64,000 bases of DNA, from the IMG/VR virus record IMGVR_UViG_3300028833_000126, positions 716 to 64,715 of that record; one strand, written 5' to 3'. The position numbers and the translations under genes were made by a program. Shown here in pieces: positions 5,852-49,971 of this stretch; positions within the stretch are counted from its first letter, which is position 1, and each line of letters opens with the position of its first letter. Below the pieces are notes generated by a model. The model was not told the origin of the DNA, did no database searches, and saw nothing but the letters and a program-made list of their open reading frames with translations. This DNA comes from a virus. Lineage: Duplodnaviria; Heunggongvirae; Uroviricota; Caudoviricetes.

Positions 5852-5912
5852 ATTTTTCTCCTTTCATGGCAAAAATATCAAGAGAAGAATAGCACTTTTT
5901 ACTTCTCCTCTC

Positions 5913-5943
5913 TCTTCATAAAAGAGAATGCATTTTTCGCGTA
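5913..5943 (-). promoter_or_regulatory. conserved promoter-like element (TCGCG-class), copy 1
   Basis: Minus strand: ACGCGAAAAATGCATTCTCTTTTATGAAG, upstream of the nuclease-RNAP operon. Confidence 0.5.
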
Positions 5944-6449
5944 AAAATCGGTCAAAAAGAAAAATGCGATGACCGATTCGCGAAGTTATCCTTTGCAACA
6001 CAGATATGACCTGCCGCCAGGAGGAACCCTGTCAGAATATCCATAATGACGGCAGATGCATACTTGTGTTGTGCGCAGCGTCGACACCACATGCAAACGC
6101 AATAGCGCCGAAGTCCAGACAAGAGACATCTATTGGGAGTTGGTCAGATTATACTGTCCGATGGTGAGGACGTGTAGGCTCGTTTAAAGAATCCCATAAA
6201 TATCAATCTGACACGGATGTCGCTGTCATATACCCGACACTCGGTGCGGTATTCAGAAAGTGACTTGGCGTGCATAGCACAGATCCTAAGATCAGTTCTG
6301 AAATATCCATGACACTACGCTGACGTTATCCGTAGAAAGGATGAAAGAACGGACAGCGTCATGTGCTTCAATCTCATTTTTATTCAAGGAGGTATTTCTG
6401 TCCGTGGAATAAAAAATAAGAGAAGAGAATAAGCACAGTTTTCTATCTT

Positions 6450-6480
6450 CTCTCATTACAGAGAATGAAATTCTCGCGAC
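6450..6480 (-). promoter_or_regulatory. conserved promoter-like element, copy 2
   Basis: GTGTCGCGAGAATTTCATTCTCTGTAATGAGAG. Confidence 0.5.
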
Positions 6481-6521
6481 ACACTTGCTCGATCTAAAAT
6501 ATCCATAGACAAAAAAAGAGA

Positions 6522-6539
6522 AGACGCTTATTCAGCGTC
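6522..6539 (-). terminator. hairpin terminator (GACGC-TTATTCA-GCGTC) plus T-tract
   Basis: Stem-loop followed on the minus strand by TTCTCTTTTTTTGTC; overlaps the 3' end of the 6528 gene. Confidence 0.5.
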
Positions 6540-6776
6540 CTCATCCTTTTCGGTTTCCGATTCGTCTTCTTCTTCCTCGGTAGTTTCTCCGTCGAAGATC
6601 TCATTCTCTTCCGTTGCTTCGTCAGCTTCCTTCGCCGCCTTGAGAGCTTTCCGCTTCTCGAGGACAGTGCCGGCGCCCATCCCAATGATGAACACCGCAG
6701 TGCCTGCGATCACTTTCGCTCCCGCTACGACGATATTCTTGCTTTCCTTCAGCACGTCGCTCATAAATTTCTTCAT
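6528..6776 (-). CDS. small membrane protein with acidic C-terminal tail
   Basis: 82-aa ORF, one TM helix then an E/D-rich tail; RBS AAAAGGAG; driven by the promoter motif at 6818-6848. Confidence 0.5.
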   Translation of the reverse strand: MKKFMSDVLKESKNIVVAGAKVIAGTAVFIIGMGAGTVLEKRKALKAAKEADEATEENEIFDGETTEEEEDESETEKDEDAE

Positions 6777-6817
6777 GGTTTAAAAACTCCTTTTTGAAAT
6801 ATAAATTTGGAATCGTG

Positions 6818-6848
6818 TTCCATTAAGACACATGAAAATTTCGCGACG
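6818..6848 (-). promoter_or_regulatory. conserved promoter-like element, copy 3
   Basis: TCGCGAAATTTTCATGTGTCTTAATGGAAC. Confidence 0.5.
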
Positions 6849-6959
6849 ACAAAATCGATCTCTAATTGCCTTGAACTACTCTCTCAGCCGTGCCAAAATA
6901 TCTTGCCGAAAACGGATCAGAGACGGATCAAAAATGCACTGAAAATCACCCCAAAAATC

Positions 6960-7270
6960 ATCGAAAAATGCCTCGTGACCAGTTGACCAGTTTTTTCGCT
7001 ATATATTTTATTTTTTAAAAATTTTCTTTTTTTATTGAAATGGGAAAAAAAAGTGGGCAACTGGTCAGGACCCCCCTGAAACCCTTGTCTTTATTGGGTT
7101 TGAGGGGTGACCACTTTTCTAAAAAAACTGGTCAGAAACTGGTCAATTGGCCAAAAATGACCACTTTTACAATTGTGTAACTCAAAAAATTCTGGCCAAA
7201 AGACCACTTTTACAAGTGTAGTTTTAAAACTTTTGGCCACGAAATTGGTCACTTTTTTACTCAAATTTTC
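6960..7270. repeat. iteron-like array: GACCACTTTTAC x4 and ACTGGTCA / TGACCAGT repeats next to an AT-rich tract
   Basis: gtgaccacttttct (7107), atgaccacttttac (7160), agaccacttttacaag (7207), tggtcactttttta (7248); gaccagttgaccag (6977), aactggtcag (7060), actggtcagaaactggtcaattggcc (7129); AT-rich run at 7000-7050. Confidence 0.5.
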
Positions 7271-7558
7271 ACTAAATTTTTTCGCCATGAAAAGTGCAAA
7301 ATATCACGCCCAAATCCTCAACTAATTTTCGAGATCTAACCTAGAATAGCGCCGCCATTTCCCCTGTTCAAAATATCAACCTGACCCGCGTCGCACACTT
7401 CGAAATTTTACTCTAACAACTTAGAGTATTGTATTTCTCGGAGCGAATGAGAGTCGAATTCTGAGCCTGTCCTGCGCCAGACACTCACCGCAGACCCAAG
7501 CAATGAATCAAAAAGAAAGAGCCAACGCTTAAGTCGCGTCGACCCAATCTCGTAAGTC

Positions 7559-7906
7559 TCACAACTCAACCACACCACTCTTAATGGCTTTTTTGATGTC
7601 ATATAAGAATGCTTCATATGCCCATATGCTTTTATACTGTGTTTCAAGATATGTCTCTTCTGATATAAACTCAAAGAACGGATACGGGATCCCAAGCATC
7701 TTGCGAATTCTGAAGCAAAGCAGACACCATCTGAACAGCCATTTAGCGTCTTTACGCTTAAACAGCGGCACAATATAGTTACTGTCTCCTCCAAAGTTTT
7801 CACAAAGCTGCTTGAACATCTGCGTACCTTTCCAGTCACAGAGAAGAATCTGTAACTCATTAATATAAATTGCCTGTTCATATGCCAGTTTGTCATTCCG
7901 TTTCAT
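7559..7906 (-). CDS. hypothetical protein
   Basis: 115-aa ORF with RBS AAAGGAGATTGAG; preferred over the overlapping 162-aa frame, which is Cys/Arg/Ser-rich. Confidence 0.5.
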   Translation of the reverse strand: MKRNDKLAYEQAIYINELQILLCDWKGTQMFKQLCENFGGDSNYIVPLFKRKDAKWLFRWCLLCFRIRKMLGIPYPFFEFISEETYLETQYKSIWAYEAFLYDIKKAIKSGVVEL

Positions 7907-7947
7907 AACTCAATCTCCTTTAAAATTGCAAATAATTGAATTGTTTT

Positions 7948-7977
7948 CTCCATATAATGCAATGAATTCTACGCGAC
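7948..7977 (-). promoter_or_regulatory. conserved promoter-like element, copy 4
   Basis: TGTCGCGTAGAATTCATTGCATTATATGGAG. Confidence 0.5.
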
Positions 7978-8022
7978 ATCTCGCCAATTCAAATATCAAT
8001 CCGCACAAAAAAAAAAAGAGAA

Positions 8023-8039
8023 GACGCTGTGTTAGCGTC
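8023..8039 (-). terminator. hairpin terminator (GACGCT-GTGTTA-GCGTC)
   Basis: Followed on the minus strand by a T11 run. Confidence 0.5.
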
Positions 8040-8334
8040 CCTCATTCTTTTCATTTAAATAGTTTACGAGTTCTCCCTTCATCGCTATTCTATAAATATC
8101 AATGCCATCAGATGCAAATCTGTTAACCCGACCACGCATTTCAAAGAGTTCATCTGTCAGCCCAATATACTCAGGCGAATAGCCAACCATAAATAATATC
8201 GTCTTCATGACGCAGTTAATAAAGTTGCGTGTCACTCTTACAATAAATACTGGTAAAGCTATTGCTAGAGATAATGTAGCCACAATGAGCCCAATTCCAA
8301 CGCGAATCAGTTTCTTGATTGCTTTCATTGTCAA
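8032..8334 (-). CDS. membrane protein
   Basis: 100 aa, N-terminal TM segment, RBS AAAAGGAGATTTG. Confidence 0.5.
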   Translation of the reverse strand: MTMKAIKKLIRVGIGLIVATLSLAIALPVFIVRVTRNFINCVMKTILFMVGYSPEYIGLTDELFEMRGRVNRFASDGIDIYRIAMKGELVNYLNEKNEGR

Positions 8335-8364
8335 ATCTCCTTTTACAAATAGTTAATTTATAGA

Positions 8365-8396
8365 GTCTCCTCACAAATATCCATGTAATCCACGCG
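8365..8396 (-). promoter_or_regulatory. conserved promoter-like element, copy 5
   Basis: ACGCGTGGATTACATGGATATTTGTGAGG. Confidence 0.45.
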
Positions 8397-8410
8397 TCTT
8401 CTACAACCCC

Positions 8411-8445
8411 TCTACAAGCCTCTACAAGCCTCTACAAGCCCCATC
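8411..8445. repeat. tandem direct repeat CTCTACAAGC x3
   Basis: cctctacaagcctctacaagcctctacaagcc, immediately upstream (in the transcription direction) of promoter copy 5. Confidence 0.6.
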
Positions 8446-8793: not shown

Positions 8794-8834
8794 TGTTTTG
8801 TCTCCTTTTTCAAGTTAAGAATTTAAGGAATTTC

Positions 8835-8863
8835 TTCCACAAATATCCATGAATTCTACGCGT
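8835..8863 (-). promoter_or_regulatory. conserved promoter-like element, copy 6
   Basis: ACGCGTAGAATTCATGGATATTTGTGGAAG. Confidence 0.45.
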
Positions 8864-9090
8864 CCCAAAACAGTAAAAAGAAAGAGCAGACGCAGAATCC
8901 GCGCCCACTCTCTCAATTTTTTACTTCCCATACCTCTTTTCGTTCAGGTCGATAACCTTCTGGATCCGATCTTTCACTTCTTCGAGTTCTTCGCATCTTT
9001 CCCTTACGATCTCGTATTCCTTCTGAGAACCGATCATCATGCTCATGTCCATTCTTCCGACATACTCGCACTTGTCGAGCCGCTCTTCGC

Positions 9091-9324: not shown

Positions 9325-9327
9325 TTT

Positions 9328-10908: not shown

Positions 10909-10946
10909 GGAAATGATTCCATTATACTGCATGTTATTTACGCGAC
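10909..10946 (-). promoter_or_regulatory. conserved promoter-like element, copy 7
   Basis: TTGTCGCGTAAATAACATGCAGTATAATGGAATCATTTCC. Confidence 0.5.
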
Positions 10947-10957
10947 AAAATATCAAT

Positions 10958-11030
10958 TAGGGGCGAAGGGACTCGAACCCTCAACCAACTGCGTATAAGA
11001 CAGGTGCTCTAACCATTGCGCTACGCCCCG
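10958..11030 (-). tRNA. tRNA with anticodon UAU (reads AUA, Ile-type), phage-encoded
   Basis: Minus-strand cloverleaf: acceptor GGGGCG/CGCCCC, D-arm GCGC-AATGGTTA-GAGC, anticodon stem CCTGT/GCAGT with loop CTTATAC (TAT at plus 10995-10997), T-arm GAGGG-TTCGAGT-CCCTT. A few mismatches, no encoded CCA. Confidence 0.55.
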
Positions 11031-26020: not shown

Positions 26021-26050
26021 TTCCATTAAGAGGCATGTATTTTTCGCGAC
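26021..26050 (-). promoter_or_regulatory. conserved promoter-like element, copy 8
   Basis: TTGTCGCGAAAAATACATGCCTCTTAATGG. Confidence 0.5.
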
Positions 26051-26062
26051 AATTGCAGAATA

Positions 26063-26584: not shown

Positions 26585-26939
26585 TGTTTTCTCCTTTTTC
26601 TTTTCTGTATTTTTCTTGTGCAGCCACTCCAAAGAGCAGCTCCCATTCTTTTGCGATATCAGATCCGTCCTCTGCAACATTTGTATCAATTGTTAGAACA
26701 GATGACGCAGAGTTTCCACGAGGCAGCGTTTGTTTCTTCGGCTTCGGAATATCAAACGCAAGAGCCTCTTTCGGCATCTCTCCGATCTCCATGAGCTCTC
26801 CATCCACTAAGATGTGGTGGTCACGGAACTCTTGCTCTCTGAGCTTGAACGTGACAAATGCATCGAGATCTCCGAGTTGGCCTTTTAATTGATCAAGCGC
26901 CTCTTGTATTTCAGCTTCGAAAATATCATCGTCGTCCAT
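26574..26939 (-). CDS. hypothetical acidic protein
   Basis: Trimmed to MDDDDIFEAE with a GAGG RBS. Confidence 0.4.
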   Translation of the reverse strand: MDDDDIFEAEIQEALDQLKGQLGDLDAFVTFKLREQEFRDHHILVDGELMEIGEMPKEALAFDIPKPKKQTLPRGNSASSVLTIDTNVAEDGSDIAKEWELLFGVAAQEKYRKEKGENNNG

Positions 26940-26955
26940 ATCATGCCTCAGTACT

Positions 26956-27267
26956 TCATGCCCATGTTGACTTCGCATCGACGACAAGGTATGTCCAAGC
27001 GAGTAAGCATCTCCACTTCTGGCCGAGATCTTTCATGATCCTCTCAAGTCGAGCCGCAACACTCTTCTTGAGCTGTCCATCTTTGAAAATATAAAGATCC
27101 AGAATGTGATGGTCATACTTGTTGTAAGCGCAATGGACTTTCGGGTCACAGTTGAGCGGTACCACTACTTTTTCATGTACAATGTTCTTGATTGCTTCAA
27201 ACTTATCAGTCTCCATGATTGTAGGAGCCTTAATGCTGAGAACGATCATTGTCCGCTTATCTTTCAT
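26956..27267 (-). CDS. hypothetical protein
   Basis: 103 aa, RBS GAAAGGATGACTGAAT. Confidence 0.45.
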   Translation of the reverse strand: MKDKRTMIVLSIKAPTIMETDKFEAIKNIVHEKVVVPLNCDPKVHCAYNKYDHHILDLYIFKDGQLKKSVAARLERIMKDLGQKWRCLLAWTYLVVDAKSTWA

Positions 27268-27290
27268 ATTCAGTCATCCTTTCAAAAATA

Positions 27291-28013
27291 TCATTGAGCT
27301 CTCATGGCATCGAAGACATGACCGCCGCATATCTGCTCAATGTTTGCGATTGCTTCATTTGAAGGCGTTTTCATGTCGTCCTCCCAGGATTTAACAAGAC
27401 CAATGTCATAGCCAGTCAGATCAGAGAAATCGCGAACACTCAATCCGTTTTGCTCCCTGCACTTCTTGATGAGGCTGCCATATGTTGTCTTGCGAACAGG
27501 CACGCGGTAGACCATGAGTTTTGAAGGAGAGCCACCCGGTGTTTTTCCGATCGTCACTTCCGGTTCTGGAATAATATCGGCATAGTCATGAGCGATCTTT
27601 GTCAGCTTCTTCCCAACAGCAATGGGAGAGCATCCTTCGTAGACGGGATTATTCTCAATGAACTCATGCGTTGTCATCTTCACCAGATCGTAATTCTTCG
27701 GCTGGGATTTGTAGTCCATATAGAGGTCGAGAATCTCGTCAATTCGCTCATCCTTCTTCTTTCTCCCGCTCTTTTCGACCTTTACAAGGTTATACGAAAG
27801 GGGAATATCATGGGAGACGGTTTTCTTTTCTTCCTCTTCTTTCCTCGCAATGATGAGCTCATCGAGGACATTGATTGAAGGAGTTGCCCGATTCTCTTCA
27901 TCGACGACTTTCTGAATGAATTCCACGATCTTATTGCAAGTCTCTTCGGAAATATCATTCAGCGTGAATTGGATGTTGATTCGTCTTTCGGTTTTGTACA
28001 TCATGCTTGCCAT
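27291..28013 (-). CDS. protein with C-terminal XRE-type HTH
   Basis: Trimmed to MASMMYKT preceded by AGAAAGGATTACAACA; C-terminal GLSVRDFSDLTGYDIGLVKSWEDDMKTPSNEAIANIEQICG. Confidence 0.5.
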   Translation of the reverse strand: MASMMYKTERRINIQFTLNDISEETCNKIVEFIQKVVDEENRATPSINVLDELIIARKEEEEKKTVSHDIPLSYNLVKVEKSGRKKKDERIDEILDLYMDYKSQPKNYDLVKMTTHEFIENNPVYEGCSPIAVGKKLTKIAHDYADIIPEPEVTIGKTPGGSPSKLMVYRVPVRKTTYGSLIKKCREQNGLSVRDFSDLTGYDIGLVKSWEDDMKTPSNEAIANIEQICGGHVFDAMRAQ

Positions 28014-28334: not shown

Positions 28335-28365
28335 TTTCATTATACGGCATGAAACTTTCGCGAAG
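28335..28365 (-). promoter_or_regulatory. conserved promoter-like element, copy 9
   Basis: TTCGCGAAAGTTTCATGCCGTATAATGAAACC. Confidence 0.5.
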
Positions 28366-29542
28366 AATATCTACTCGATACATAGTCTTGTTCGTTGAAC
28401 TGCTTCTTCTCCTTGAGCGCCCGCTTGATCGCAACATCAATCCCGGCAAAAGAACGAAGATGGAAGTAGTACAAAATATCATACGGCGTGTTGCGTCTGT
28501 CAATTCGGCCCGTCGCTTGCTTCAGTGTCTTGTAGGAATAATTCTGCGAGTAGAAGATCGTTGTATCCGTTGTGATGCAATTCCATCCCTCAGCTCCTGC
28601 GCTGTATTGAGACAGATATACCCAAGAGTCACCGCTGAGAGTTCTGACATCTTCGTGCTTATGTCCGTTCCACTCTGCATACATGATTCCTCGCTCTTCA
28701 CAGAAATTCCGAAGAATCTCAAGCTCGTAGTCGAAGTTATAAAATATAATAGCTTTCGGATGCTTCTTAAGTATCTTCTCAAGAGCCTCTACCCTGCTTG
28801 GATCGCTGTTGCAGACTTTTCTCTGTGCATAGCATAGCTCACCGGCAGTGTCAATTGGCTCACACTTCCAAGGATTCCACATGTCACGAGCAAGGCTTTT
28901 GTACTTCAAAATATCATACTCAACCATGACATCCTCATGCTTGCTCTCTGTTCGCTTTTTGTAGTCCATCTTCACGAGAATCTGATTGCGATATCGTTTC
29001 AGTTTATCCTGCTCGAGATACCTGTCAATCTTCGGAAAATTTGTGAACTGAGAATAGACGATATGCTCATGGACGAACTGAGTGCGATTCTTATAAAAGC
29101 CGTTCGCAATGAAAACCGGAATATAGTCTTTCCACGTGTCTCCCGGAGTTGCTGACAAGAGAATCCATCGGTTCTTCTTCACGATCTTGAGAAAACACTT
29201 CACCCAAGCTCCTGATCCTACAACACGCTGCTCATCAAATATAAAGAATGCGTCGGAGACACCGACGTATTTCTCAATGTTATTCCATGAGTCAACGACA
29301 ATGTCTCCGACAAACGGCATTCCAAACGGCTCACATTCCTCAGGCCACTCCTTCGTATCACGCTTCTTTGCAGTTGTGATAATATAAAGCGGCATCGAAG
29401 ACCCATGCTCACGGAAGTCTTTCTCGTAGTATGCAAGAGCTGTACGAGACTTTCCGGAACCAACGTCCCCGCAAAGAATGCAGCCGTTTTTCATTCGATT
29501 TACGGCGTCAATCTGATAGTCATCAAGAATTACATTCGGCAT
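28340..29542 (-). CDS. SF2 ATP-dependent helicase (DEAD/SNF2-like)
   Basis: Walker A GDVGSGKSRTAL, DExx box IFDEQ, motif VI QATGRIDRR. Confidence 0.65.
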   Translation of the reverse strand: MPNVILDDYQIDAVNRMKNGCILCGDVGSGKSRTALAYYEKDFREHGSSMPLYIITTAKKRDTKEWPEECEPFGMPFVGDIVVDSWNNIEKYVGVSDAFFIFDEQRVVGSGAWVKCFLKIVKKNRWILLSATPGDTWKDYIPVFIANGFYKNRTQFVHEHIVYSQFTNFPKIDRYLEQDKLKRYRNQILVKMDYKKRTESKHEDVMVEYDILKYKSLARDMWNPWKCEPIDTAGELCYAQRKVCNSDPSRVEALEKILKKHPKAIIFYNFDYELEILRNFCEERGIMYAEWNGHKHEDVRTLSGDSWVYLSQYSAGAEGWNCITTDTTIFYSQNYSYKTLKQATGRIDRRNTPYDILYYFHLRSFAGIDVAIKRALKEKKQFNEQDYVSSRYSSRKFHAV

Positions 29543-33539: not shown

Positions 33540-33568
33540 TCCCATTACTGAAGATGCTAATTTCGCGA
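33540..33568 (-). promoter_or_regulatory. conserved promoter-like element, copy 10
   Basis: AATCGCGAAATTAGCATCTTCAGTAATGGG. Confidence 0.5.
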
Positions 33569-34096
33569 TTACATATCGAACGGCACATCATCGTCATCCG
33601 GAGCTTCCTCAGATGCCCAGTCAGCCTCGAGGATAGGTTCCGCAGTTCTTGCGTACATTTCGCTGAGCTGTGCAGAGATGCCGGATGCACCAGTCATGTT
33701 CTTCCACGGATACTGTCTCAGTACAACGTCAACCCTGTCGAACTCAACGCGGTCAAAGTTGGCAATGTTGTCTTCCGTGATCTGAATCCGTCTGTCATGC
33801 GTGAACTGAACGATCTTCGGCTTCACCCAATCGAGGTCTAGGCGGACCTTAACTTCGAGCGTGTAGAAGGGATCGCCATCTTCATTCTTCGGCATCTTGA
33901 TCTTGACATTCCAGCCGAGATCCTTGAGCTTCTGAGCTGCTTCTGCATCGTAGAAGCGGATTGTGAACTTGCGAGTGCCGTTTGTGTTGAACTGTGTCTT
34001 CTCACCGGCAAAGTTGCGATAGGTAATGTTGCTGTTTCTGAGACCGCTGATCTTGAGCTTGTTGCCTTCGAGAACTGTGTACTTGATTTCTTCCAT
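33569..34096 (-). CDS. putative single-stranded DNA-binding protein (non-canonical, acidic aromatic C-terminal tail)
   Basis: Ends ...ASEEAPDDDDVPFDM, resembling the SSB DDDIPF tail and the T7 gp2.5 acidic-Phe tail; immediately upstream of the polymerase gene. Confidence 0.35.
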   Translation of the reverse strand: MEEIKYTVLEGNKLKISGLRNSNITYRNFAGEKTQFNTNGTRKFTIRFYDAEAAQKLKDLGWNVKIKMPKNEDGDPFYTLEVKVRLDLDWVKPKIVQFTHDRRIQITEDNIANFDRVEFDRVDVVLRQYPWKNMTGASGISAQLSEMYARTAEPILEADWASEEAPDDDDVPFDM

Positions 34097-39817: not shown

Positions 39818-40786
39818 TCACACCTTCTTGTACGGAATTTTACTGTAGACGATTTCAGAGCAGTTGAAGTCAAGCCACACCGCATTGTTCTCACCGAAGA
39901 CAAAGTCACGAACAGACTTCTGGCTAAGATCACCGACACCGAAATCGACATAATTCTTGTTATCGTCATTCGGATCATAGACCCAACCGAACTGTTCCCC
40001 CGCCTGTGTCTTTTCGAAGCCAAGCGCCTCGTAAACCTCATTAAGTCTGAGAACACGATTTGCAACAAGTCTGTCCGTCATCTCAGCCATCTTGCGGTTG
40101 AGGAACATAGCATTGTACATAGCGTCTTTCTGCCAGTACTTGCTGTCTTCATTGAAGCACCGTGCGAAGTCACTGAGCTGATAGTTCTCCTTCGGCTTCT
40201 TGGTCGTCACAGTCTCCTCCTTGCCATTCTCGTCGGTCTTCGTCTCCTCGACTTCTTCCATCTTGTCGGCAAAGCGCAGTTCCTTGTCAACCTCCTCGCC
40301 ATACTTCTCGACAACTTTCTTGCGATAGTCATCGAACTCCTTGACAAGGACGCCGTTTGCAGCGAGGAGACCTGCGTTACGATTGGACAGGATTCTGTGA
40401 GAGGTGAGGACACAGGCAATAGAGAACGCACCCATCAGGACAACAGGAGCATAGAGCTTTGCAACTTCTCCCGCGCCTTTCAGATAACCGATTGTGACGT
40501 CATGCTTCATGTCTTCTTCGGTGTACCGAGACTCCGGAAGGATTTCGAACCCCTTCTCTTCTGCTTCTACAATATGCGCTCTCTTGCCCTTGGCTTCCGC
40601 AATGATTCGCTTCGGTTCTTCAAGGGCCTTCTCCGTCTTCTTTCCGGCACGCCATGCGAATACTACGGTCGTGATACCAGATGCGATAGCGAGTGCAACG
40701 AAGATCTCAGGCGAGTGCTTCTGTGCACCAAGTTTGGCGTTCGTTGCAATGTTCTTCATGCCAGTTGTGATTTTTTCGAATTTCAT
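39818..40786 (-). CDS. membrane-anchored protein, member 1 of a three-gene paralog family
   Basis: TM after a short N-terminus, long helical region, conserved C-terminus LNEVYEALGFEKTQAGEQFGWVYD shared with the 41427 and 43244 genes. Confidence 0.5.
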   Translation of the reverse strand: MKFEKITTGMKNIATNAKLGAQKHSPEIFVALAIASGITTVVFAWRAGKKTEKALEEPKRIIAEAKGKRAHIVEAEEKGFEILPESRYTEEDMKHDVTIGYLKGAGEVAKLYAPVVLMGAFSIACVLTSHRILSNRNAGLLAANGVLVKEFDDYRKKVVEKYGEEVDKELRFADKMEEVEETKTDENGKEETVTTKKPKENYQLSDFARCFNEDSKYWQKDAMYNAMFLNRKMAEMTDRLVANRVLRLNEVYEALGFEKTQAGEQFGWVYDPNDDNKNYVDFGVGDLSQKSVRDFVFGENNAVWLDFNCSEIVYSKIPYKKV

Positions 40787-40808
40787 TTTGAAGTAACGCT
40801 CCTTTCAT

Positions 40809-41408
40809 TCAGCGTGTGTGGTCGATGTACATAGGCTCGGGCAGGTGGATGGACCATACTCTTTCGCCCTTTACGTTGTAGTGGTAGATAGATGCCTGAC
40901 TGAGATCAGTCCAGCCCCAGTCATAGTAGGTGTGCTTCGGCGTCTGACCTGCATACTTGTAGAAATCAGACACAAGAACAACTCGCTCAGTCTTCAGCTT
41001 GCTTCTCATACGTCCGAGAACACGCTCTGCTGAGTCAATGTTCTTGAACTGAATCTCACCGAAGTTCCTCCGAAGACGATCCTCGCTTCCTCCGCGTTCT
41101 CTGTCGTCGTAGTAGGATTGATAGTTATGAGGCTCATCAAAACTGTCATAGCCTTTTCCTCTTCCGCGATAGACGAATGCACTGAAAGCCTCGACGATCA
41201 CTCTTCTGAGAGCCGGACCAATGATGTTCTGATAGATACTGTCGAACAAGATCTTGTAGTCTTCAGACATAAAAGCCCCTGCAATTCTTTTTGAGAGGCT
41301 CTTTTTCTGATTCTGAACGACTGTACTTTCAATAGGGGGCTCAGCGTTATTGCCTGCCCCCGTGTTTTCGTCATATGCTACCGGCTTGTTGTCGAATTCT
41401 TCGCTCAT
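40809..41408 (-). CDS. paralog of the 11699..12148 gene (shared C-terminal WGWxDL...LPEP domain)
   Basis: C-terminal ...YYDWGWTDLSQASIYHYNVKGERVWSIHLPEPMYIDH. Confidence 0.5.
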   Translation of the reverse strand: MSEEFDNKPVAYDENTGAGNNAEPPIESTVVQNQKKSLSKRIAGAFMSEDYKILFDSIYQNIIGPALRRVIVEAFSAFVYRGRGKGYDSFDEPHNYQSYYDDRERGGSEDRLRRNFGEIQFKNIDSAERVLGRMRSKLKTERVVLVSDFYKYAGQTPKHTYYDWGWTDLSQASIYHYNVKGERVWSIHLPEPMYIDHTR

Positions 41409-41426
41409 TTCAAATCTCCTTTGCTG

Positions 41427-42239
41427 TTAGATTTCAACATAACCGAACACACCTGGATCGATAAGCTTTGCGTTCGGTCTGATTGTATAGACGGGCTTGC
41501 CATCCATGATTGTCGTGGAAACATCAAAGCTTGCCTGATCGGAAGATTTGAAGCAGTCGTCAAATCTCCACCCGTATGCCTCTCCGATTCCAGTTAAACC
41601 ATGGCCAATGATCTCATATGCTTCATTCAGAGTCACTTCGTCACCAGCATTGAGTCTGCGATTGATCTCATTGACCGCTGCATCGAGAGTATTCTTAGTT
41701 ACCAGGAATGGCTTGCCTTCAAGTCCATCGAACGTCAGATCATAGCACCAGTATTTCCCTTCTTCAGGGACGAACTCTGGAATCACGTCCGGCTTCGGAG
41801 TTTCTTTCAGCTTCTTCTCGACAACCTTATCATCGATCTCCTTGGCCTTCTCTTCGCCTACAACATCCTTTGCTGCATCGACATAGTCGGCAATGTTCTT
41901 GGATGCCATCTCGGAAATTGCACATGCAGCCGTACCGAGCTTTGCAATACGTTTATCGTTTTCGACGGCAGATGCAACGAGGAAGAGAGTTCCGCCGATC
42001 AGAGCGCTTGCAGGAGCCGTAAAATGCTTCGCTGCGATCTTGCCCTTCTCAACACCATCGATCTCTTCTCCGGTCTCCGCCTTCTTATCTTCGAGTTCTT
42101 TCTTGAATTTCGGAATTTCCGTACCGAGCAAATATCCACCCGTCACGAGAAGGATCCCTCCAAATGCCGTAGCAATCTTGGGCCAATGCTTGTTGAGAGT
42201 CTTGCCGACATTTTTGATAATTTCTTTTGCTGTGCTCAT
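41427..42239 (-). CDS. membrane-anchored protein, member 2 of the paralog family
   Basis: C-terminus LNEAYEIIGHGLTGIGEAYGWRFDD aligns with members 1 and 3. Confidence 0.5.
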   Translation of the reverse strand: MSTAKEIIKNVGKTLNKHWPKIATAFGGILLVTGGYLLGTEIPKFKKELEDKKAETGEEIDGVEKGKIAAKHFTAPASALIGGTLFLVASAVENDKRIAKLGTAACAISEMASKNIADYVDAAKDVVGEEKAKEIDDKVVEKKLKETPKPDVIPEFVPEEGKYWCYDLTFDGLEGKPFLVTKNTLDAAVNEINRRLNAGDEVTLNEAYEIIGHGLTGIGEAYGWRFDDCFKSSDQASFDVSTTIMDGKPVYTIRPNAKLIDPGVFGYVEI

Positions 42240-42278
42240 CTTTGTTTTCTCCTTTTTAAAATTTGTTGAAAATATAAA

Positions 42279-42470
42279 TTACCGGACAAGCGTAATCTTG
42301 CCGGGAAGGGTGACTCGAGTACTCGGAAGTTTGTTGAGCAGCTTCTTTGCCTGATATGTCAGGTTGTTTCGTGCTTTCTCTTCCGATACCGCATACGTAC
42401 TGCCTCGCCAGTTGGAGGCAACACAAGTGTTAAAGACCATGATCGGTCCTTCGTATTCATATAATTTCAT
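42279..42470 (-). CDS. hypothetical protein
   Basis: 63-aa ORF. Confidence 0.4.
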   Translation of the reverse strand: MKLYEYEGPIMVFNTCVASNWRGSTYAVSEEKARNNLTYQAKKLLNKLPSTRVTLPGKITLVR

Positions 42471-42508
42471 TAGCCGCCTCCAATAAGCGCAAAAAGAAGA
42501 AGAGCCTG

Positions 42509-42730
42509 TTAAAGCTCCTCGTCTTCTTCAGATTCGGTGTCTTCTTCAGACTCTTCTTCGTCTTCGGTTCTTTCTGCCATGAGCGCATTTACACGCTCCT
42601 CGATCCTTTCATCGATATACTCTTCCTGCTCTCTCTTATCGAGTGCGTCCTTAATCAGGTTCCCGATAATCAGAGCGAATCCAAGTGCTACCGATCCGAT
42701 CTCAATGATTGCGTTCTTTTTCTTTCTCAT
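42509..42730 (-). CDS. small membrane protein with acidic tail
   Basis: 73 aa, TM then an E/D-rich tail. Confidence 0.4.
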   Translation of the reverse strand: MRKKKNAIIEIGSVALGFALIIGNLIKDALDKREQEEYIDERIEERVNALMAERTEDEEESEEDTESEEDEEL

Positions 42731-42748
42731 AGGTAAAATACCTCCCTT

Positions 42749-42776
42749 TCATTAGAATGCATGAAATGTTCGCGTC
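42749..42776 (-). promoter_or_regulatory. conserved promoter-like element, copy 11
   Basis: TTTGACGCGAACATTTCATGCATTCTAATGAAAGG. Confidence 0.5.
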
Positions 42777-42785
42777 AAACATCAT

Positions 42786-43217
42786 TCAGTCCCGAAGTTT
42801 ATCGAGAATCCAGAAGAATTTCCTGTACTTGTCATAGTATTCGTTTCGGCAACATGGAATAGCATTCCTGCTTCGAAGAATACTATATGGAATTCCTTCT
42901 GTGATACTCTTGAGAATATAACTTGACAGATCTGCTCCTGCTTTTTCCGCTGCAAGTTCTATCATGTCTATTCTCTTTGATAAGGATTCTCGCACAATCG
43001 CAACATCGGACGTAACATCGATCGTTATGTTCGTCTTCGTCTTTGGAATATCCGTGAGCTCTGCCTGATACTGGTGGCCATCCAAGTATTCAAGCGCCTT
43101 TTTCCACTCTGGATACTGTAAACAGAAATGTTTCAATTCATAGTATCTCTGACGAGGAATCCACCATGGATTTGTTTCGAGAATTTCGGGACTGATGACT
43201 GTTGACATTTTGGACAC
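42786..43217 (-). CDS. hypothetical protein
   Basis: 143-aa ORF. Confidence 0.45.
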   Translation of the reverse strand: MSKMSTVISPEILETNPWWIPRQRYYELKHFCLQYPEWKKALEYLDGHQYQAELTDIPKTKTNITIDVTSDVAIVRESLSKRIDMIELAAEKAGADLSSYILKSITEGIPYSILRSRNAIPCCRNEYYDKYRKFFWILDKLRD

Positions 43218-43243
43218 TCCTTGTTAAGACTTATTAAGATATG

Positions 43244-44026
43244 TTAAATTTCACACATCTCAAAACCATAGCGTGCTCTGCAAATTGGCTGGACGACATA
43301 TGATCCGTCACCAGAGCATGTGTAAGCGAAATCAAGCCAAGAACTTGCATAGCGACCGTCAACATCATTGTATATGGACTCATAACTCCAGCCAATGTCT
43401 TGTGCTTTAAGCCGATCAATACCGTAGTCAGAAGGTTCGATGTCGAAATATCCAATGACATCCCAAAGCGTTACGCTACCAATCAGATCAAGATGACGAT
43501 TAATGCGCACGACAGCGTTTGCGATATCGAATCTTGTAGCCATGAAGCTGATGTCTGGGCAATCTTCATAAAGATCCTTCAAGACCGCATTAACTCTTTT
43601 TTCTCCTGTTTCGATATCTGTATATTCAACTCCTTCATCCGGCAGCTTTTCCTCTTCAATCGCTTCTCTGACAGAAACATCAGCCTCTTCGCCATTGATC
43701 TCACCATTCTTAAGCCGATAGTTCTTATATGCCTGCTGAACCGCGACATATGCGCCTGTCAGACTTGCCTGCGTATTGAGATCCATGCAGTGTGCACCAA
43801 CCCCACAAGCCACAGACACAGCAGCACAGCCGATTGCCGGACAAAACACCTTTGCGCCAGTCACGACCTTGTCCTTCTTCGACATCTCAGGGTTTGCATC
43901 GAGAGCCTCTTTGAACTTCGGACCCTCCTTAGCCGCAAATATCACGGCTGCGATTGTTGCTCCGGAGCCGAGAACGGTAAGGACCGTCGGCAGGATTTTC
44001 CGGATCATGTTGCTTGCTTTGCTCAT
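43244..44026 (-). CDS. membrane-anchored protein, member 3 of the paralog family
   Basis: Trimmed to MSKASNMIRKI preceded by GAAAGGAGAAATCACA; C-terminus LWDVIGYFDIEPSDYGIDRLKAQDIGWSYE. Confidence 0.5.
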   Translation of the reverse strand: MSKASNMIRKILPTVLTVLGSGATIAAVIFAAKEGPKFKEALDANPEMSKKDKVVTGAKVFCPAIGCAAVSVACGVGAHCMDLNTQASLTGAYVAVQQAYKNYRLKNGEINGEEADVSVREAIEEEKLPDEGVEYTDIETGEKRVNAVLKDLYEDCPDISFMATRFDIANAVVRINRHLDLIGSVTLWDVIGYFDIEPSDYGIDRLKAQDIGWSYESIYNDVDGRYASSWLDFAYTCSGDGSYVVQPICRARYGFEMCEI

Positions 44027-44470: not shown

Positions 44471-44496
44471 AATTACCTCCATAATAAGTTTTTGGT

Positions 44497-44525
44497 CTCA
44501 TTATATGAGGTGAAATTTTCGCGAC
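44497..44525 (-). promoter_or_regulatory. conserved promoter-like element, copy 12
   Basis: TTGTCGCGAAAATTTCACCTCATATAATGAGACC. Confidence 0.5.
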
Positions 44526-44552
44526 AAAAATATAAAAAGAGAAAAGCGTCTG

Positions 44553-44892: not shown

Positions 44893-44926
44893 ATTATCCC
44901 ATTACTGACGATGATTTCTTCGCGAC
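44893..44926 (-). promoter_or_regulatory. conserved promoter-like element, copy 13
   Basis: TTGTCGCGAAGAAATCATCGTCAGTAATGGGATAATCC. Confidence 0.5.
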
Positions 44927-44945
44927 AAAAAATATAAAAAGAGAA

Positions 44946-45351: not shown

Positions 45352-45383
45352 ATTACCATTATAAAGGATGGAAATATCGCGAC
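45352..45383 (-). promoter_or_regulatory. conserved promoter-like element, copy 14
   Basis: TTGTCGCGATATTTCCATCCTTTATAATGGTAATAATC. Confidence 0.5.
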
Positions 45384-45388
45384 AAATA

Positions 45389-46122: not shown

Positions 46123-46154
46123 TTTCTCCATTAAAAAAGGTGAATTCTACGCGA
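46123..46154 (-). promoter_or_regulatory. conserved promoter-like element, copy 15
   Basis: TCGCGTAGAATTCACCTTTTTTAATGGAGAAAAG. Confidence 0.5.
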
Positions 46155-46171
46155 AAAAGAAAGAGGGGCCG

Positions 46172-46460: not shown

Positions 46461-46496
46461 GAATTACTCCCATAACACGGCATGGATTCTACGCGA
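46461..46496 (-). promoter_or_regulatory. conserved promoter-like element, copy 16
   Basis: TCGCGTAGAATCCATGCCGTGTTATGGGAGTAATTCC. Confidence 0.5.
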
Positions 46497-46547
46497 AAAA
46501 AGAAAGAGGAAACGCTTGCTAGGCGTAACCCCTTTCTGTGAAATCTC

Positions 46548-46982: not shown

Positions 46983-47025
46983 AGTTAATCTCCTTTCAAG
47001 TTTATGGATTTCATTATAACAGATG

Positions 47026-47244
47026 TTATCCTCGCGTCTTCTTTACAAAAAATAAAAGAGCCTCATGATCCTTGAACTTTTCAGGAGGATCATCGAGACT
47101 CAGCAGAAGCTCAGTTGTGCCATCAGGCCACTCTACAACATTAAGTGTACCGGACGGTTCCGAGTGAATGTTAAACCACAGCGTTCCGAGCAACCATCCA
47201 ATAATTAAGCAGCAGATAGCTATTGCCGCAATGATGTATGGCAT
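47026..47244 (-). CDS. small membrane protein
   Basis: 72 aa with a TM helix; preceded by two promoters (the TCGCG class and the TGTGTTATAAT extended -10). Confidence 0.45.
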   Translation of the reverse strand: MPYIIAAIAICCLIIGWLLGTLWFNIHSEPSGTLNVVEWPDGTTELLLSLDDPPEKFKDHEALLFFVKKTRG

Positions 47245-47290
47245 ATCATGTCTCCTTTCCTAAATTGCCATGCTACATTATAACACAGAT

Positions 47291-47310
47291 GCAAATCACC
47301 TGCGTGCCTA
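47291..47310 (+). promoter_or_regulatory. ATCACCTGCGTGCC element, copy A, adjacent to an extended -10 (TGTGTTATAAT on the minus strand)
   Basis: aaatcacctgcgtgcctaa; minus strand reads TTAGGCACGCAGGTGATTTGCATCTGTGTTATAATG. Confidence 0.45.
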
Positions 47311-47341
47311 AAATATAAAAGAGGAATAACATTTTCATACC

Positions 47342-47371
47342 CCTCTCATTAAATAGAATGTTTTCTACGCG
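47342..47371 (-). promoter_or_regulatory. conserved promoter-like element, copy 17
   Basis: TCGCGTAGAAAACATTCTATTTAATGAGAGGG. Confidence 0.5.
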
Positions 47372-47386
47372 AAAAAAAAAAGAAAA

Positions 47387-47403
47387 GACGCTTATTCAGC
47401 GTC
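47387..47403 (-). terminator. hairpin terminator (GACGC-TTATTCA-GCGTC)
   Basis: Followed by TTTTCTTTTTTTTTTCGCGTAGAA, leading directly into a promoter. Confidence 0.5.
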
Positions 47404-47607: not shown

Positions 47608-47627
47608 AATTTCAAATCTCCTTTTCT

Positions 47628-47663
47628 GGATTGTCTCCATTAAGAGAGATGAAATTATCGCGA
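47628..47663 (-). promoter_or_regulatory. conserved promoter-like element, copy 18
   Basis: AATCGCGATAATTTCATCTCTCTTAATGGAGACAATCC. Confidence 0.5.
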
Positions 47664-47689
47664 TTAGAATATCCATTAGCTTATCGGGG

Positions 47690-47945
47690 TTCTCTTATCA
47701 ATTTTAGTAAATTTTTAGTAAAATGCTTGTTTCTTTGGATTAAAATATCTGTAAAACGGCTTTATCATTGGTTTTCTAATATTTTTCTTATGATTTCTGA
47801 CGGAAATCCTACACTGCATAAACTCAGTACCAATAAATACGCCAAACCTCAACAATCTCAACACTAAACGCATTCCAATATCTTCTCGTAATCTATCATA
47901 TCTTCTCGCAATTTACTAAAATTTTTAGTACAAATTTTAGTACGA
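47690..47945. other. candidate attP region: arm-type direct repeats flanking an approximately 200-bp core region, adjacent to int
   Basis: TTTTAGTAAA x2 (47703-47724), ATATCTTCTCG(T/C)AAT x2 (47878-47913), TTTTAGTAC x2 (47925-47945); non-coding. Confidence 0.4.
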
Positions 47946-49213
47946 TCAGATAACCTTTCCCTCCAAATTTCTGAATGACCTGATCTTTGCCTCATTCGTT
48001 GCCTCAGCGTAAATATTCAAAGTTATCGAAATATCAGAATGACCCATCACTTCTTGAATCACCTTTACGTTACTTTCGTTCTCGCACATTCTGGTACAGA
48101 ACGTATGCCTGAGATCATGAGCGCTCAAAAGCGGAAGAAGAACCGGATCCCGATGTTCTCTTTGAGCTCGTTCTATCTCTTCATCGTTGCACTTTTCTGC
48201 AAGCATCTTTAAAGCAACAGTTACGCTCCCTTCGTCGAGACATTTGCCAGTCCTTCTCACAAATATAAAACCGCTGCAATCATCGACTGTTTCGCTCCTT
48301 ATTCTCATGCGATCCTGTAAATACTTCTCTTCAAGCAGTACTTCCATAACAGATTGAAACATCGGAATCGTTCTTATACCACTTGATGACTTTGGAGCAG
48401 CGATGTGCTCTCTGTACTTATCCTCGCCACTTGCTCTATAATATACGAGCTGCCGATTGATATAGATGAGCCTATTTGTAAAGTCGCAGTCGTCCCATGT
48501 GAGCGCTCGTGCTTCCCCGATTCTGCAACCAGTACCAAGCAAGAAAACGATCAGACGATACCATTTGCGATACTTCTGATGCTCTCTTAAGTATTCCAAA
48601 AATATCTTTTGCTGTTCTTCGGTTAAAGCTTTATCCTCAGCTCTTTCGATACTTTTTCGATTCTTAAACACTGTGGACATGACCCCATCAACTGGATTTG
48701 ATCGTATGAGATTGTCTCTCACGGCAATATTAAAAAGAGGATGCAAAATTAGATTCACATTTCTAATCGTTCCTTGCGACAGTTTGTCTTTGTCGACCAT
48801 TTTGGTGTACAGTTTTAAAATATCACTGTAGTGAATCGAGCCGACACTTCTTTTTCCGAGAGTATTTTCAACGTACCAAGACCAGATCTTTCTGTAATGC
48901 ACTCTTGTCTGCTCTCGAAGATCCGTTTTTGTCTTCATATACTCGTCAAAGTATTGATTCAAAGTAACCTTATCCGCGTCGTAAATGTTAATCTCATCCA
49001 CATCTGCTCGCAATGCTTTCATTTCCATATCCCTGAGACAAATATCACAGGACTTGCCTTCTGGAACTGAGTCAGTTGCCACGAGTTTCCAGCTATAAAG
49101 CCATCGATCAATTCCGTTATGGTCCTTATACTTATAGGCATACCTCCCATCAGATCTTTGATACTCGCCTTTTCTCAGTTTTCTGTTCTTTGAATCTCTT
49201 CTGTCTGCCATTT
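47946..49213 (-). CDS. int: tyrosine site-specific integrase
   Basis: Catalytic signature TGCRIGEARAL (box I Arg), LLSAHDLRHTFCTRM (H-x-x-R), VMGHSDISITLNIYAE (Tyr); trimmed to MADRRDSKN preceded by AAAAGGAG. Confidence 0.85.
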
Positions 49214-49297
49214 TGAACTCCTTTTTAGTAAACAGAAAAGAGACCCTGATAAGCATAATCATTATACTATATCAGAGTCTCCCCTGTCAACGATTTA

Positions 49298-49504
49298 CTA
49301 TAAATTATATACTCGATCAAGCCATTTCTCAAACAGTACTCGCTTGATCCTGACTTGCGATCCAACTCTCAGAACCCACTCAAGTGTCCGGTCTTCCTCA
49401 ATGATCTTGCGCAGTCTTCCTTCTCCAATCAGGGAATATCCAGCAGCCTCTTCAATGGTCATCGAGTACCGTTGCTCTGGGCTCAGTTGTGATTTCTTTG
49501 GCAT
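49298..49504 (-). CDS. xis: excisionase/AlpA-like HTH protein
   Basis: MTIEEAAGYSLIGEGRLRKII resembles the phage excisionase MerR-type HTH; immediately upstream of int. Confidence 0.5.
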   Translation of the reverse strand: MPKKSQLSPEQRYSMTIEEAAGYSLIGEGRLRKIIEEDRTLEWVLRVGSQVRIKRVLFEKWLDRVYNL

Positions 49505-49561
49505 GTGATCTCTCCTTTCTGATGCCTCATTGTTATGTGCAAAAAAAAAGAAGAGGCCATG

Positions 49562-49807
49562 TTAGACCTCATCTTTACTTGAAGCAAATCTTTCATCATT
49601 ACTTTTAATTGGCTTATTAAACCAGTCATATCCATAAACGCTTCCAAGTTGCAAATATGCCGGAGGATCGATCTGCAATTCATCATAAACTATTAACAGC
49701 GCATCTCTTTCTGTAAGATAGCCGTCATTTGCTAAGATTTCTTCGCATCTTTCCTTCGCTCTCCTCATTGCTCCCTCTAGCTTCATTTCATACTCTTCGG
49801 TTGTCAT
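49562..49807 (-). CDS. hypothetical protein
   Basis: 81 aa, RBS TAGGAGGTTAGT. Confidence 0.45.
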   Translation of the reverse strand: MTTEEYEMKLEGAMRRAKERCEEILANDGYLTERDALLIVYDELQIDPPAYLQLGSVYGYDWFNKPIKSNDERFASSKDEV

Positions 49808-49837
49808 ACTAACCTCCTAAATAGATTTTATATATGC

Positions 49838-49865
49838 TTCATTATACAACAAGTTTTCTACGCGA
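49838..49865 (-). promoter_or_regulatory. conserved promoter-like element, copy 19
   Basis: TCGCGTAGAAAACTTGTTGTATAATGAAGC. Confidence 0.5.
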
Positions 49866-49883
49866 AAAATAAAAAGAGAATGA

Positions 49884-49906
49884 TAGCCCAGCGATTTGCC
49901 GGGCTA
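49884..49906 (-). terminator. hairpin terminator (TAGCCCGGC-AAATC-GCTGGGCTA)
   Basis: Followed by TCATTCTCTTTTTATTTTTCGCGTAGAA. Confidence 0.5.
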
Positions 49907-49971
49907 CCACTCTCAAATATCATATCTCAACTGTCATCTTTTTATCTATCTTTTCAGATAAAATTATAACA

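Follow-up and report, generated by a model that had tools for sequence, protein, structure and literature searches.

A three-block 32-bp element repeated 20 times in a phage genome and shared with phages of two host phyla: a candidate promoter for a phage-encoded two-barrel RNA polymerase

The 64,000-nucleotide (nt) stretch of the Caudoviricetes record IMGVR_UViG_3300028833_000126 (the window, meaning this stretch at its full length) has all its genes on the minus strand and contains 20 copies of a 32-bp promoter-like element, all on this same coding strand and spanning positions 5914-49868, where the number expected by chance is about zero. The original prediction, made from the letters of the window, had described at least 19 copies between 5900 and 49910; the span stands and the number becomes 20. 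Following the minus strand, the first unit starts at 49868, just past the terminator that closes the lysis genes, and the copies divide the region into single-gene cassettes from 49.9 to 44.5 kb, longer operons from 42.8 to 11 kb and cassettes again from 10.9 to 5.9 kb; the part at 64.0-50.0 kb, with tail and amidase genes, has no copy. Beyond the last copy lies the gene of a 958-amino-acid (aa) protein predicted to be a single-chain two-barrel RNA polymerase (RNAP) (2132..5008, minus strand), and the relation between this enzyme and the element is the subject considered here.

The family was first laid out by listing the minus-strand sites of the form NNNWCGCGW, from which a weight matrix was then built; the first bases of the 32-mers are given in plus-strand coordinates, and the elements are read on the minus strand. 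The corrected consensus is nnnW-CGCG-WARAWWn-CAT-N6-TWATG-RRR, in which C5, G6, C7, G8, C16, A17, T18, T25, T28, G29 and the purines at 30-32 are invariant or nearly so, positions 9-15 are A/T-rich and positions 19-24 are variable. The pattern CGCGWNNNNNNCAYNNNNNNTWATGR finds 16 exact and four one-mismatch matches in the window, on the minus strand only, and in shuffled sequence it finds 3.6 matches at two mismatches or fewer; with the matrix the 20 sites score 24.9-42.4 bits, against less than 8 bits for the rest of the window on both strands. The motif is therefore far above chance by both measures, as the original prediction had expected of an enrichment test, but its written consensus has no literal match, because it placed N7 between CAT and TAATG where the real gap is N6, and not because the motif is absent. 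Just two sites match the pattern with two mismatches (51266..51291 and 60364..60389, minus strand); they are intragenic, in the late module, and no more numerous than chance allows. A few tens of bases downstream of each copy there is a Shine-Dalgarno (SD) sequence with a start codon, or else a short hairpin transcript. Reading the conserved ATG as a start codon, or TAATG as a stop-start overlap, was ruled out, the true SD-led starts being located 15-45 nt downstream in a frame that is not kept.

Copy 1 (TTTTCGCGTAGAAAACTTGTTGTATAATGAAG, 49837..49868, on the minus strand like all the others) is the first after the late and lysis genes, has a terminator hairpin at about 49881..49909 and is placed to drive an 81-aa gene. 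In the same cassette region, copy 2 (47635..47666) would drive a 71-aa gene, copy 4 (47009..47040) a 144-aa gene, copy 5 (46468..46499) an 86-aa gene, copy 6 (46126..46157) an 82-aa zinc-ribbon gene and a 119-aa gene, copy 7 (45354..45385) a 115-aa gene, copy 8 (44897..44928) a 103-aa gene and copy 9 (44496..44527) small genes together with a DUF6353 gene; copy 3 (47344..47375) is directly followed by a hairpin and T-tract (47347..47310) and may specify an attenuator or a short RNA. The window has three paralogous DUF6353 genes (322, 270 and 260 aa) at 39818..44026 on the minus strand, kept in six to eight relatives across both host phyla. Copy 10 (42747..42778), with an SD sequence GGGAGG from motif position 33-34, heads an operon reaching the primase-polymerase and SSB genes; copy 11 (33540..33571), at the head of an operon reaching the helicase gene, shares bases with the stop codon of the SSB-like gene; copy 12 (28335..28366) overlaps the last codons of the helicase gene; and copy 13 (26021..26052), which has the top score of 42.4 bits, heads about 15 kb of small genes. 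The replication module, which had been described as devoid of copies, thus has them, since those starting at 42778, 33571, 28366 and 26052 head operons with the genes of DUF6353, the 1402-aa primase-polymerase, the SSB-like protein and the helicase.

Copy 14 (10917..10948) is located directly downstream of a tRNA-Ile gene (anticodon TAT, 10958..11030, minus strand), which scores 55.9 bits and is the sole match in an Rfam scan of the window; this tRNA gene has no copy in front of it, unlike the tRNAs of the related phages FP_oengus, Kenosha and ReqiPoco6, each of which has one. Copies 15 (8835..8866) and 16 (8369..8400) have the start-box variant TTGTG, and a tandem repeat of GGCTTGTAGA (three to four units, about 8401..8440, minus strand) immediately precedes copy 16. 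Copies 17 (7948..7979) and 18 (6818..6849) follow, and copy 19 (6451..6482) is directly succeeded by a hairpin and T-tract (6454..6411), with no convincing open reading frame (ORF) before copy 20. In fact, the roughly 450 nt between copies 19 and 20 (about 5950..6410) show no convincing ORF on either strand, and a comparable gene-free gap of about 790 nt (26894..27680) stands ahead of the polymerase-operon promoter of FP_oengus; a non-coding RNA, an origin and a packaging site are conceivable for the gap before copy 20. Copy 20 (5914..5945), the variant TTTTATG, heads the operon of an endonuclease, an exonuclease and the RNAP, which runs on into the structural genes without a further copy; transcription would thereby enter the genes that extend past the low end of the window.

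The 1402-aa primase-polymerase ties the window to the Faecalibacterium phage FP_oengus, to the faecal scaffold MT835485.1 and, more distantly, to many actinophages; a nucleotide search of the 42-50 kb region against phage records gave no near relative. Scanning with the window matrix found 13 copies in FP_oengus and 23 in MT835485.1, all on the coding strand and upstream of ribosome-binding sites. Six further relatives were chosen among the carriers of polymerase homologues and the element was sought in them through over-represented words; an iterative matrix search gave 15 sites in FP_oengus, 24 in MT835485.1, 10 and 12 in the Lactococcus phages P078 and 1706, 10 in the Arthrobacter phage Gordon, 10 in the Gordonia phage Kenosha, 11 in the Streptomyces phage DrGrey and 14 in the Rhodococcus phage ReqiPoco6. 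With those of the window, the strong sites amount to 126 in nine genomes, all on the coding strand and aligning without gaps, with the pooled consensus TTTTCGCAAAAATTACATGCCCTATAATGAAA. The element takes the form GACGCGAAAAAWnCAg-N5-CTTTATGGAr in FP_oengus, TTCGCGAAAATTACAT-nnCCTTTTATGAAA in MT835485.1, TTTTACATACCCTATAATGArA in P078, CRCAWGTTTTACATAnnCTATAGTAGAA in 1706, cTCGCAAGAATTACAn-nnnTTATAATGA in Gordon, cTCGCAwAwATTACACGyCCTATAATGAGACCCC in Kenosha, TCGCAwrwwTTACAnGnCCTATA[A/G]TGAGACC in DrGrey and TCGCAgAAAAAACACrCCCTATAATGAGA in ReqiPoco6, and the relatives have in common the three-block form TCGCR-N7-CAY-N6-TARTR-RRA.

The phages bearing the element infect hosts of 33-72% G+C, belonging to two phyla (Firmicutes and Actinobacteria) and six genera; the blocks conserved across both phyla (TCGCR, CAY and the T..T-purine box) are those unlike sigma-70, and they keep a fixed spacing in flanking DNA that is unrelated at this phylum-level divergence. 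In the annotated relatives the sites closely precede about the first ten small genes past the tail and lysis module, with scattered copies further on, and a divergent copy always stands ahead of the endonuclease-exonuclease-polymerase operon. The same layout, with the polymerase, is present in a prophage of the Clostridium symbiosum chromosome. When IMG/VR was scanned with a single exact form of the motif, 116 stretches were identified, 63 of which have 3-20 copies that are, in all but one stretch, entirely on one strand; 11 of these short stretches also contain the polymerase. Comparison with related genomes, which the original prediction had proposed, thus places the element ahead of genes on the coding strand of every relative examined, and eight of the nine element-bearing genomes encode a polymerase homologue (36-46% identity).

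A GC-rich hairpin with a T-tract occurs within 75 nt upstream of 10 of the 20 copies, compared to 15% of random windows, and in the relatives the proportion ranges from 2/10 to 8/11 copies. The association with terminators is therefore a real enrichment, but the view that nearly every copy follows one was too broad, and the terminator-promoter cassette holds for about half of the copies. In DrGrey, many promoter copies are closely preceded by terminator-like hairpins, whose 3' half is formed by GGGGTTTGGGTTTCG (ten copies between 20800 and 28150), so that the cassette design is kept in a high-G+C host. Other hairpins are located after the element: those at 5871..5917, 6411..6454 and 47310..47347 (minus strand) have the form GAGAG...CTCTT plus a T-tract. 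The first of them is a leader hairpin (GAAGAGAGAGGAGAAG...CTATTCTTCTCTTGATATTTTT) just after copy 20, and FP_oengus, Gordon, Kenosha, ReqiPoco6 and the C. symbiosum prophage likewise have a leader hairpin with a T-tract behind the copy nearest the polymerase, as does DrGrey in a weak form; a GGrATAGAAT box is common to several of these leaders. This conservation suggests an attenuator or an antitermination step at the entry to the late genes. The leader is followed by the genes of an endonuclease-like protein (101 aa) and a PD-(D/E)XK exonuclease (187 aa) (5005..5851, minus strand), both conserved and predicted to be co-transcribed with the RNAP gene; in the C. symbiosum prophage the packaging and head genes come directly after the polymerase, and no copy is found in the 10 kb downstream.

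Several downstream features limit where transcription can begin. According to the Rfam tRNA model, a tRNA of FP_oengus has its 5' end at motif position 31 (47.9 bits) and one of Kenosha at position 34 (42.6 bits); in ReqiPoco6, ARAGORN locates a tRNA-Ala at position 36, and three copies in MT835485.1 have an SD core from positions 31-33 with start codons at 45-47. Since tRNA 5' ends and SD cores are found at 31-34, with tRNA genes and ribosome-binding sites thus opening 2-5 nt past the ATG box, transcription should begin no later than about position 31, inside the TWATG box or directly behind it; the invariant T28, the purine at 29 and the purines at 30-32 fit a +1 at position 29. Stem-loops that would be 5'-terminal and flush with position 29 show a local excess, being present at nine of the 20 copies in the window and at eight of 15 in FP_oengus, with other offsets scoring similarly and the other genomes giving nothing. 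In contrast, a sigma-70 -10 hexamer at positions 23-28 would start transcription near position 35 and therefore truncate the downstream tRNAs and ribosome-binding sites.

The element had been read as a sigma-70-like promoter with a -35 TTGTCG, a 16-bp spacer and a -10 TATAAT, a geometry that the family does not sustain. Read in this way, only three copies reach 10 of 12 consensus matches, and the would-be A-11 (position 24) is A in 6/20 copies; TAnnnT at positions 23-28 is present in 6/20 copies of the window, 0/15 of FP_oengus and 5/24 of MT835485.1, and no alternative register within positions 19-32 supplies it in the copies of these three clostridial phages. T1, T2 and G3 are found in 15, 13 and 12 of the 20 copies, compared to 20/20 for C5-G8, and in the relatives the would-be -35 is GACGCG, cTCGCA or TTTTAAG, with the TTG unconserved. 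In place of TATAAT, FP_oengus has TTTATG and phage 1706 has TAGTAG; TAnnnT at 23-28 is complete in the actinophage and lactococcal genomes and lost in the clostridial ones, while T25, T28, the purine at 29 and CA16-17 are kept in all the genomes compared. The conserved spacer had been proposed as an added operator, or a recognition element for a phage factor, within a sigma-70-like promoter, but it is CGCG, CAT and T..TG-R that do not vary, and neither TTG nor A-11 is among the invariant bases.

Promoters of the host type are present elsewhere in the window. A perfect TTGACA-N18-TATAAT (49261..49290, minus strand) stands ahead of the integrase gene (start about 49211; Phage_integrase 7.7e-27, with a Tn916-type DNA-binding domain), and the gene of a Tn916-type Xis (49298..49504) is located just upstream of the integrase gene. 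A second host-type promoter (11/12 matches, 49303..49332, minus strand) lies 42 nt further upstream than the perfect one. Moreover, a second repeat family, ACGCAGGTGATyTGnnTyTGTGTTATAAT, has three copies with a chance expectation of 0 (47277..47305 and 49963..49991 on the minus strand, 54165..54193 on the plus strand), two with an extended -10 (TGnTATAAT) and the third antisense, between the amidase and tail genes; it may represent host-polymerase promoters with a shared operator for lysogeny control. Canonical sigma-A promoters, namely the perfect TTGACA-N18-TATAAT and the two TGnTATAAT copies, are confined to the integrase/lysogeny module; since these are canonical, unlike the 20-copy element, the phage appears to use canonical host promoters where it needs them.

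The phage-encoded RNAP mentioned in the original prediction exists and is the 958-aa ORF, whereas the 1402-aa ORF is the primase-polymerase. In Pfam the 958-aa protein has helix-turn-helix (HTH) matches alone, at both ends, including sigma-70 region 4; the sequence includes SGADFDGDT, a signature that marks the catalytic loop in cellular RNA polymerases (ADFDGD at about residues 556-561), and the eight homologues (36-46% identity) keep LSGADFDGDT and RYPHGGTFEIP unchanged and share two N-terminal HTH units and one C-terminal unit. A sequence search against PDB chains found nothing, while a fold search matches the model of the protein (pLDDT 65) to QDE-1 and the largest subunits of RNA polymerases. 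Together with the signature, the modelled fold identifies it as a YonO/QDE-1-like two-barrel RNA polymerase. This agrees with a previous proposal, based on HHpred and on DxDGD, that the HTH protein is a YonO-like polymerase, in which the FP_oengus homologue was included and the protein was described as common to an actinophage supercluster and to Lactococcus and Faecalibacterium phages (bioRxiv 10.1101/842583). An N-terminal motif, HYGxxRxSGRYPWGSG (residues 26-48), is invariant in the eight homologues, but the confidence of the model is very low there; the motif might serve as a signal for packaging, ejection or the binding of a partner.

By tblastn, homologues of the polymerase are found in 250 phage records, of which 95 are from Arthrobacter, 55 from Gordonia, 54 from Streptomyces and 13 from Lactococcus phages, with others from Curtobacterium, Microbacterium and Rhodococcus; in gut metagenomes the family comprises at least 8000 protein clusters and is very common in prophages of gut Clostridia. 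Its database name, where there is any, is 'helix-turn-helix domain-containing protein'; the FP_oengus homologue is annotated as 'RNA-dependent RNA polymerase', the homologue of phage 1706 (orf75, 1029 aa) is labelled 'structural protein' by its depositors (EU081845.1) and gp106 of ReqiPoco6 is so labelled by similarity. The HTH units offer a possible link to the element. P078 alone lacks the CGC block in its promoters, having TTTTAAG instead, and P078 alone lacks the conserved Arg in the recognition helix of the second HTH, where ESSVRxLL is replaced by PGSVTNYA; elsewhere this helix reads (N/S/G)ES(S/T)(V/F)Rxx(L/I/Y), and in P078 SPGSVTNYA. The two changes may reflect co-variation of reader and site.

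Considered as a whole, the repeat described in the original prediction is real, whereas the terminator frequency, the sigma-70 geometry and the absence from the replication module do not stand as written. Its description as a promoter is upheld by the coding-strand orientation, the position upstream of ribosome-binding sites and tRNAs, the frequent placement after terminators and the conservation in relatives. In our reading of the sequences, the 20 elements are probably lineage-specific phage promoters read directly by the 958-aa polymerase, without a host sigma factor. The two-tier transcription programme with a phage RNAP that had been envisaged remains plausible with the roles exchanged: the stereotyped element likely belongs to the phage polymerase, and the canonical sigma-A promoters to the lysogeny module alone.

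According to this proposal, the polymerase would recognize three blocks at intervals of roughly a helical turn, namely TCGCG (about -25 to -21), CAT (about -13 to -11) and TWAT (-4 to -1), the upstream blocks being read by its three HTH modules, and would initiate at the purine after TWAT (G29 of the 32-mer), with purine-rich first transcribed bases (GRRA). The copies would split the early and middle genome into short cassettes delimited by terminators and into a small number of longer operons, until transcription from the last and most divergent copy, at 5945, passed the leader hairpin and T-tract and proceeded through the endonuclease, exonuclease and RNAP genes into the structural and lysis genes. 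The polymerase could be delivered in the virion, making early transcription independent of the host. A more far-reaching version, in which the HTH-fused two-barrel enzyme is self-sufficient and sigma-independent, is packaged and injected with the virion, reads TCGCR/CAY/TART-purine through its HTHs and transcribes nearly the whole genome, leaving to host sigma-A only the lysogeny module, is possible but doubtful; if true, it would explain the presence of one consensus in siphoviruses of Firmicutes and Actinobacteria and the apparent moves of the lineage between distant hosts.

Several observations weigh against direct reading by the polymerase. The polymerase gene is itself located behind a copy of the element, so a promoter used by this polymerase alone needs virion delivery or another source of the first enzyme; a virion enzyme would resolve this arrangement, as well as the presence of the element ahead of the first genes after lysis, but the phage is temperate (Int/Xis) and prophage induction cannot rely on a virion protein. 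Five of the nine genomes have a perfect TATAAT as their start box, and in these host sigma-A could, to judge from the sequence, be used. The structure model of the 958-aa protein is moderate only (pLDDT 65), and the co-variation of HTH and site is that of a single lineage, P078. Finally, the MT835485.1 scaffold has 24 copies and no polymerase gene in its 70.6 kb, neither tblastn nor a profile built from the eight homologues finding one there. This unverified scaffold, whose ends do not overlap and interrupt an ORF on one side, lacks the whole contiguous four-gene endonuclease-exonuclease-RNAP-146-aa block and keeps all the other lineage-conserved genes (among them those of the primase-polymerase, the helicase and DUF6353); being incomplete and without the entire block, it probably has its polymerase gene in the unassembled part. 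An 897-aa ORF of MT835485.1 is a collagen-like tail protein.

Among the alternatives, the one that survives best, though it is unlikely, is a host core polymerase redirected to the element by a sigma-like or appropriating factor of the phage, either the 958-aa protein with its HTH modules as an adaptor or a conserved uncharacterised protein. Conservation across hosts calls for a phage-encoded reader that does not necessarily polymerise, the 958-aa protein does have sigma-70 region-4 matches, and several lineage-conserved proteins without any Pfam match (199, 181, 149 and 146 aa), as well as DUF6353, could be considered for this role. However, the ADFDGD metal-binding loop and the surrounding core are invariant at 36-46% identity, which argues for catalysis; the lineage-conserved window proteins (present in at least seven of eight relatives) that have a Pfam match are the primase-polymerase, the helicase, the SSB-like protein, DUF6353 and a nuclease, with no sigma factor among them and no sigma region-2 homologue among the conserved proteins; and initiation right after the AT box is more like that of single-polypeptide phage polymerases.

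Strong early promoters of the host sigma-A holoenzyme, with CGCG and CAT as an operator or UP-like element for a phage regulator, are quite improbable. They would account for the few copies with TTGTCG-16-TATAAT, for the perfect TATAAT of the actinophage and lactococcal relatives and for the location ahead of the first genes expressed after the lysis module, which is usual host-polymerase territory, and sigma region 1.2 would go well with a G-rich discriminator behind the -10. On the other side, A-11 is missing in 14/20, 15/15 and 19/24 copies of the three clostridial phages, the -35 TTG is unconserved in the relatives, tRNAs and SD sequences are too near for a start 7 nt past the hexamer, the clear sigma-A promoters of the window look different and it is the non-sigma blocks that are conserved over two phyla.

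That the elements are not promoters, being instead repressor 'stoperator' sites or recombination sequences at cassette boundaries, is very hard to maintain: the stoperators of cluster A mycobacteriophages are likewise asymmetric sites that lie between genes and on one strand, and repeated cassette borders would favour homologous exchange, but the strict strand bias, the short fixed distance to the ribosome-binding site, the placement after terminators and directly ahead of tRNA genes and the three blocks held at fixed spacing among unrelated flanks at phylum-level divergence speak against both, and the element is longer than a stoperator, three-block and positioned like a promoter. The boundary view has in its favour a 32-bp intergenic repeat that flanks genes rearranged among cluster AU phages (Giantsbane preprint, 10.1101/2020.01.10.891226); recombination could be a side effect of repeated promoters.

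Whether minimal YonO-like enzymes find promoters without a sigma factor was still open when YonO was described (PMC5467207), and the 32-bp consensus, with its 126 sites in nine genomes, together with a polymerase family that has built-in HTH modules, constitutes a testable pair. If direct reading by the polymerase is true, the pair would serve as a model of how a minimal two-barrel polymerase recognizes promoters and would supply a compact orthogonal transcription system, possibly functional in Gram-positive hosts from both phyla; moreover, the annotation of thousands of genes would be corrected, the 'boundary repeats' of actinophages would be reinterpreted and lysogeny, as the arrangement suggests, could be controlled by withholding the polymerase.

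Promoters specific to phage polymerases are already known as a kind, from T7, N4, phiKZ/AR9, crAss-like phages and P23-45. Those of the T7/T3/SP6 type resemble the element in being stereotyped sequences of 20-30 bp, on the coding strand only, with an AT-rich box at -4 to -1, a purine start and a purine-rich initial sequence. In particular, the form CTATAGTGAGACC of the Streptomyces phage is one base from CTATAGGGAGACC, the start region of the T7 promoter, which is a resemblance only. In contrast, the polymerase described here does not have the T7 (Pol I-like) fold but is of the two-barrel type, with cellular RNAP and QDE-1 as its relatives, and the element is longer (about -28 to +4), with three separated blocks, a variable N6 and a likely reading by HTH units. 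YonO, from the Bacillus prophage SPbeta, is alike in being a single chain of about 100 kDa with a DxDGD loop, and its phage too is a temperate Firmicutes siphovirus; YonO produces the transcript of a long late operon, beginning at a start site of its own, whose promoter sequence was left undetermined (PMC5467207), and the yonN-yonK gap of SPbeta, where the YonO late transcript starts, has no match to the element. It differs from the 958-aa protein in that the latter has N- and C-terminal HTH modules and no detectable sequence similarity to solved chains.

The virion RNAPs (N4 vRNAP, gp66 of crAss-like phi14:2 and the tape-measure-fused gp96 of the Thermus phage P23-45) similarly combine a polymerase of the phage with phage-specific early promoters, and gp66 and gp96 are two-barrel enzymes (PMC10770324), thus precedents for a two-barrel polymerase in the virion; the present enzyme is instead small, free-standing and HTH-fused, and what points to its packaging is annotation. 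The promoters of N4 are DNA hairpins, which the elements are not, and the non-virion RNAP of phiKZ/AR9 is multisubunit and uses promoters without the upstream TCGCR and CAY blocks. The closest likeness is that of the 32-bp repeat of cluster AU Arthrobacter phages, which has the same length, occurs in the same region just past the tail and lysis genes and flanks each small gene; it is very probably the same element, of which the cluster AU phage Gordon has 10 copies. That repeat was read as a recombination boundary and was not tied to transcription, to the polymerase-like protein or to other phages (10.1101/2020.01.10.891226). In the literature on YonO promoters, on transcription of phage 1706, on promoters of clusters AU, DJ and BI and on the motif strings, no description of the element as a promoter was found, nor any work that ties it to the polymerase or notes it outside cluster AU. 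The host-takeover module of SPO1 and the early arrays of T4 and T5 also consist of many close, strong promoters, each serving one or a few small genes and often separated by terminators. These early promoters are read by host sigma-70/sigma-A and keep a canonical -35 and -10, whereas the elements described here are organized without them.

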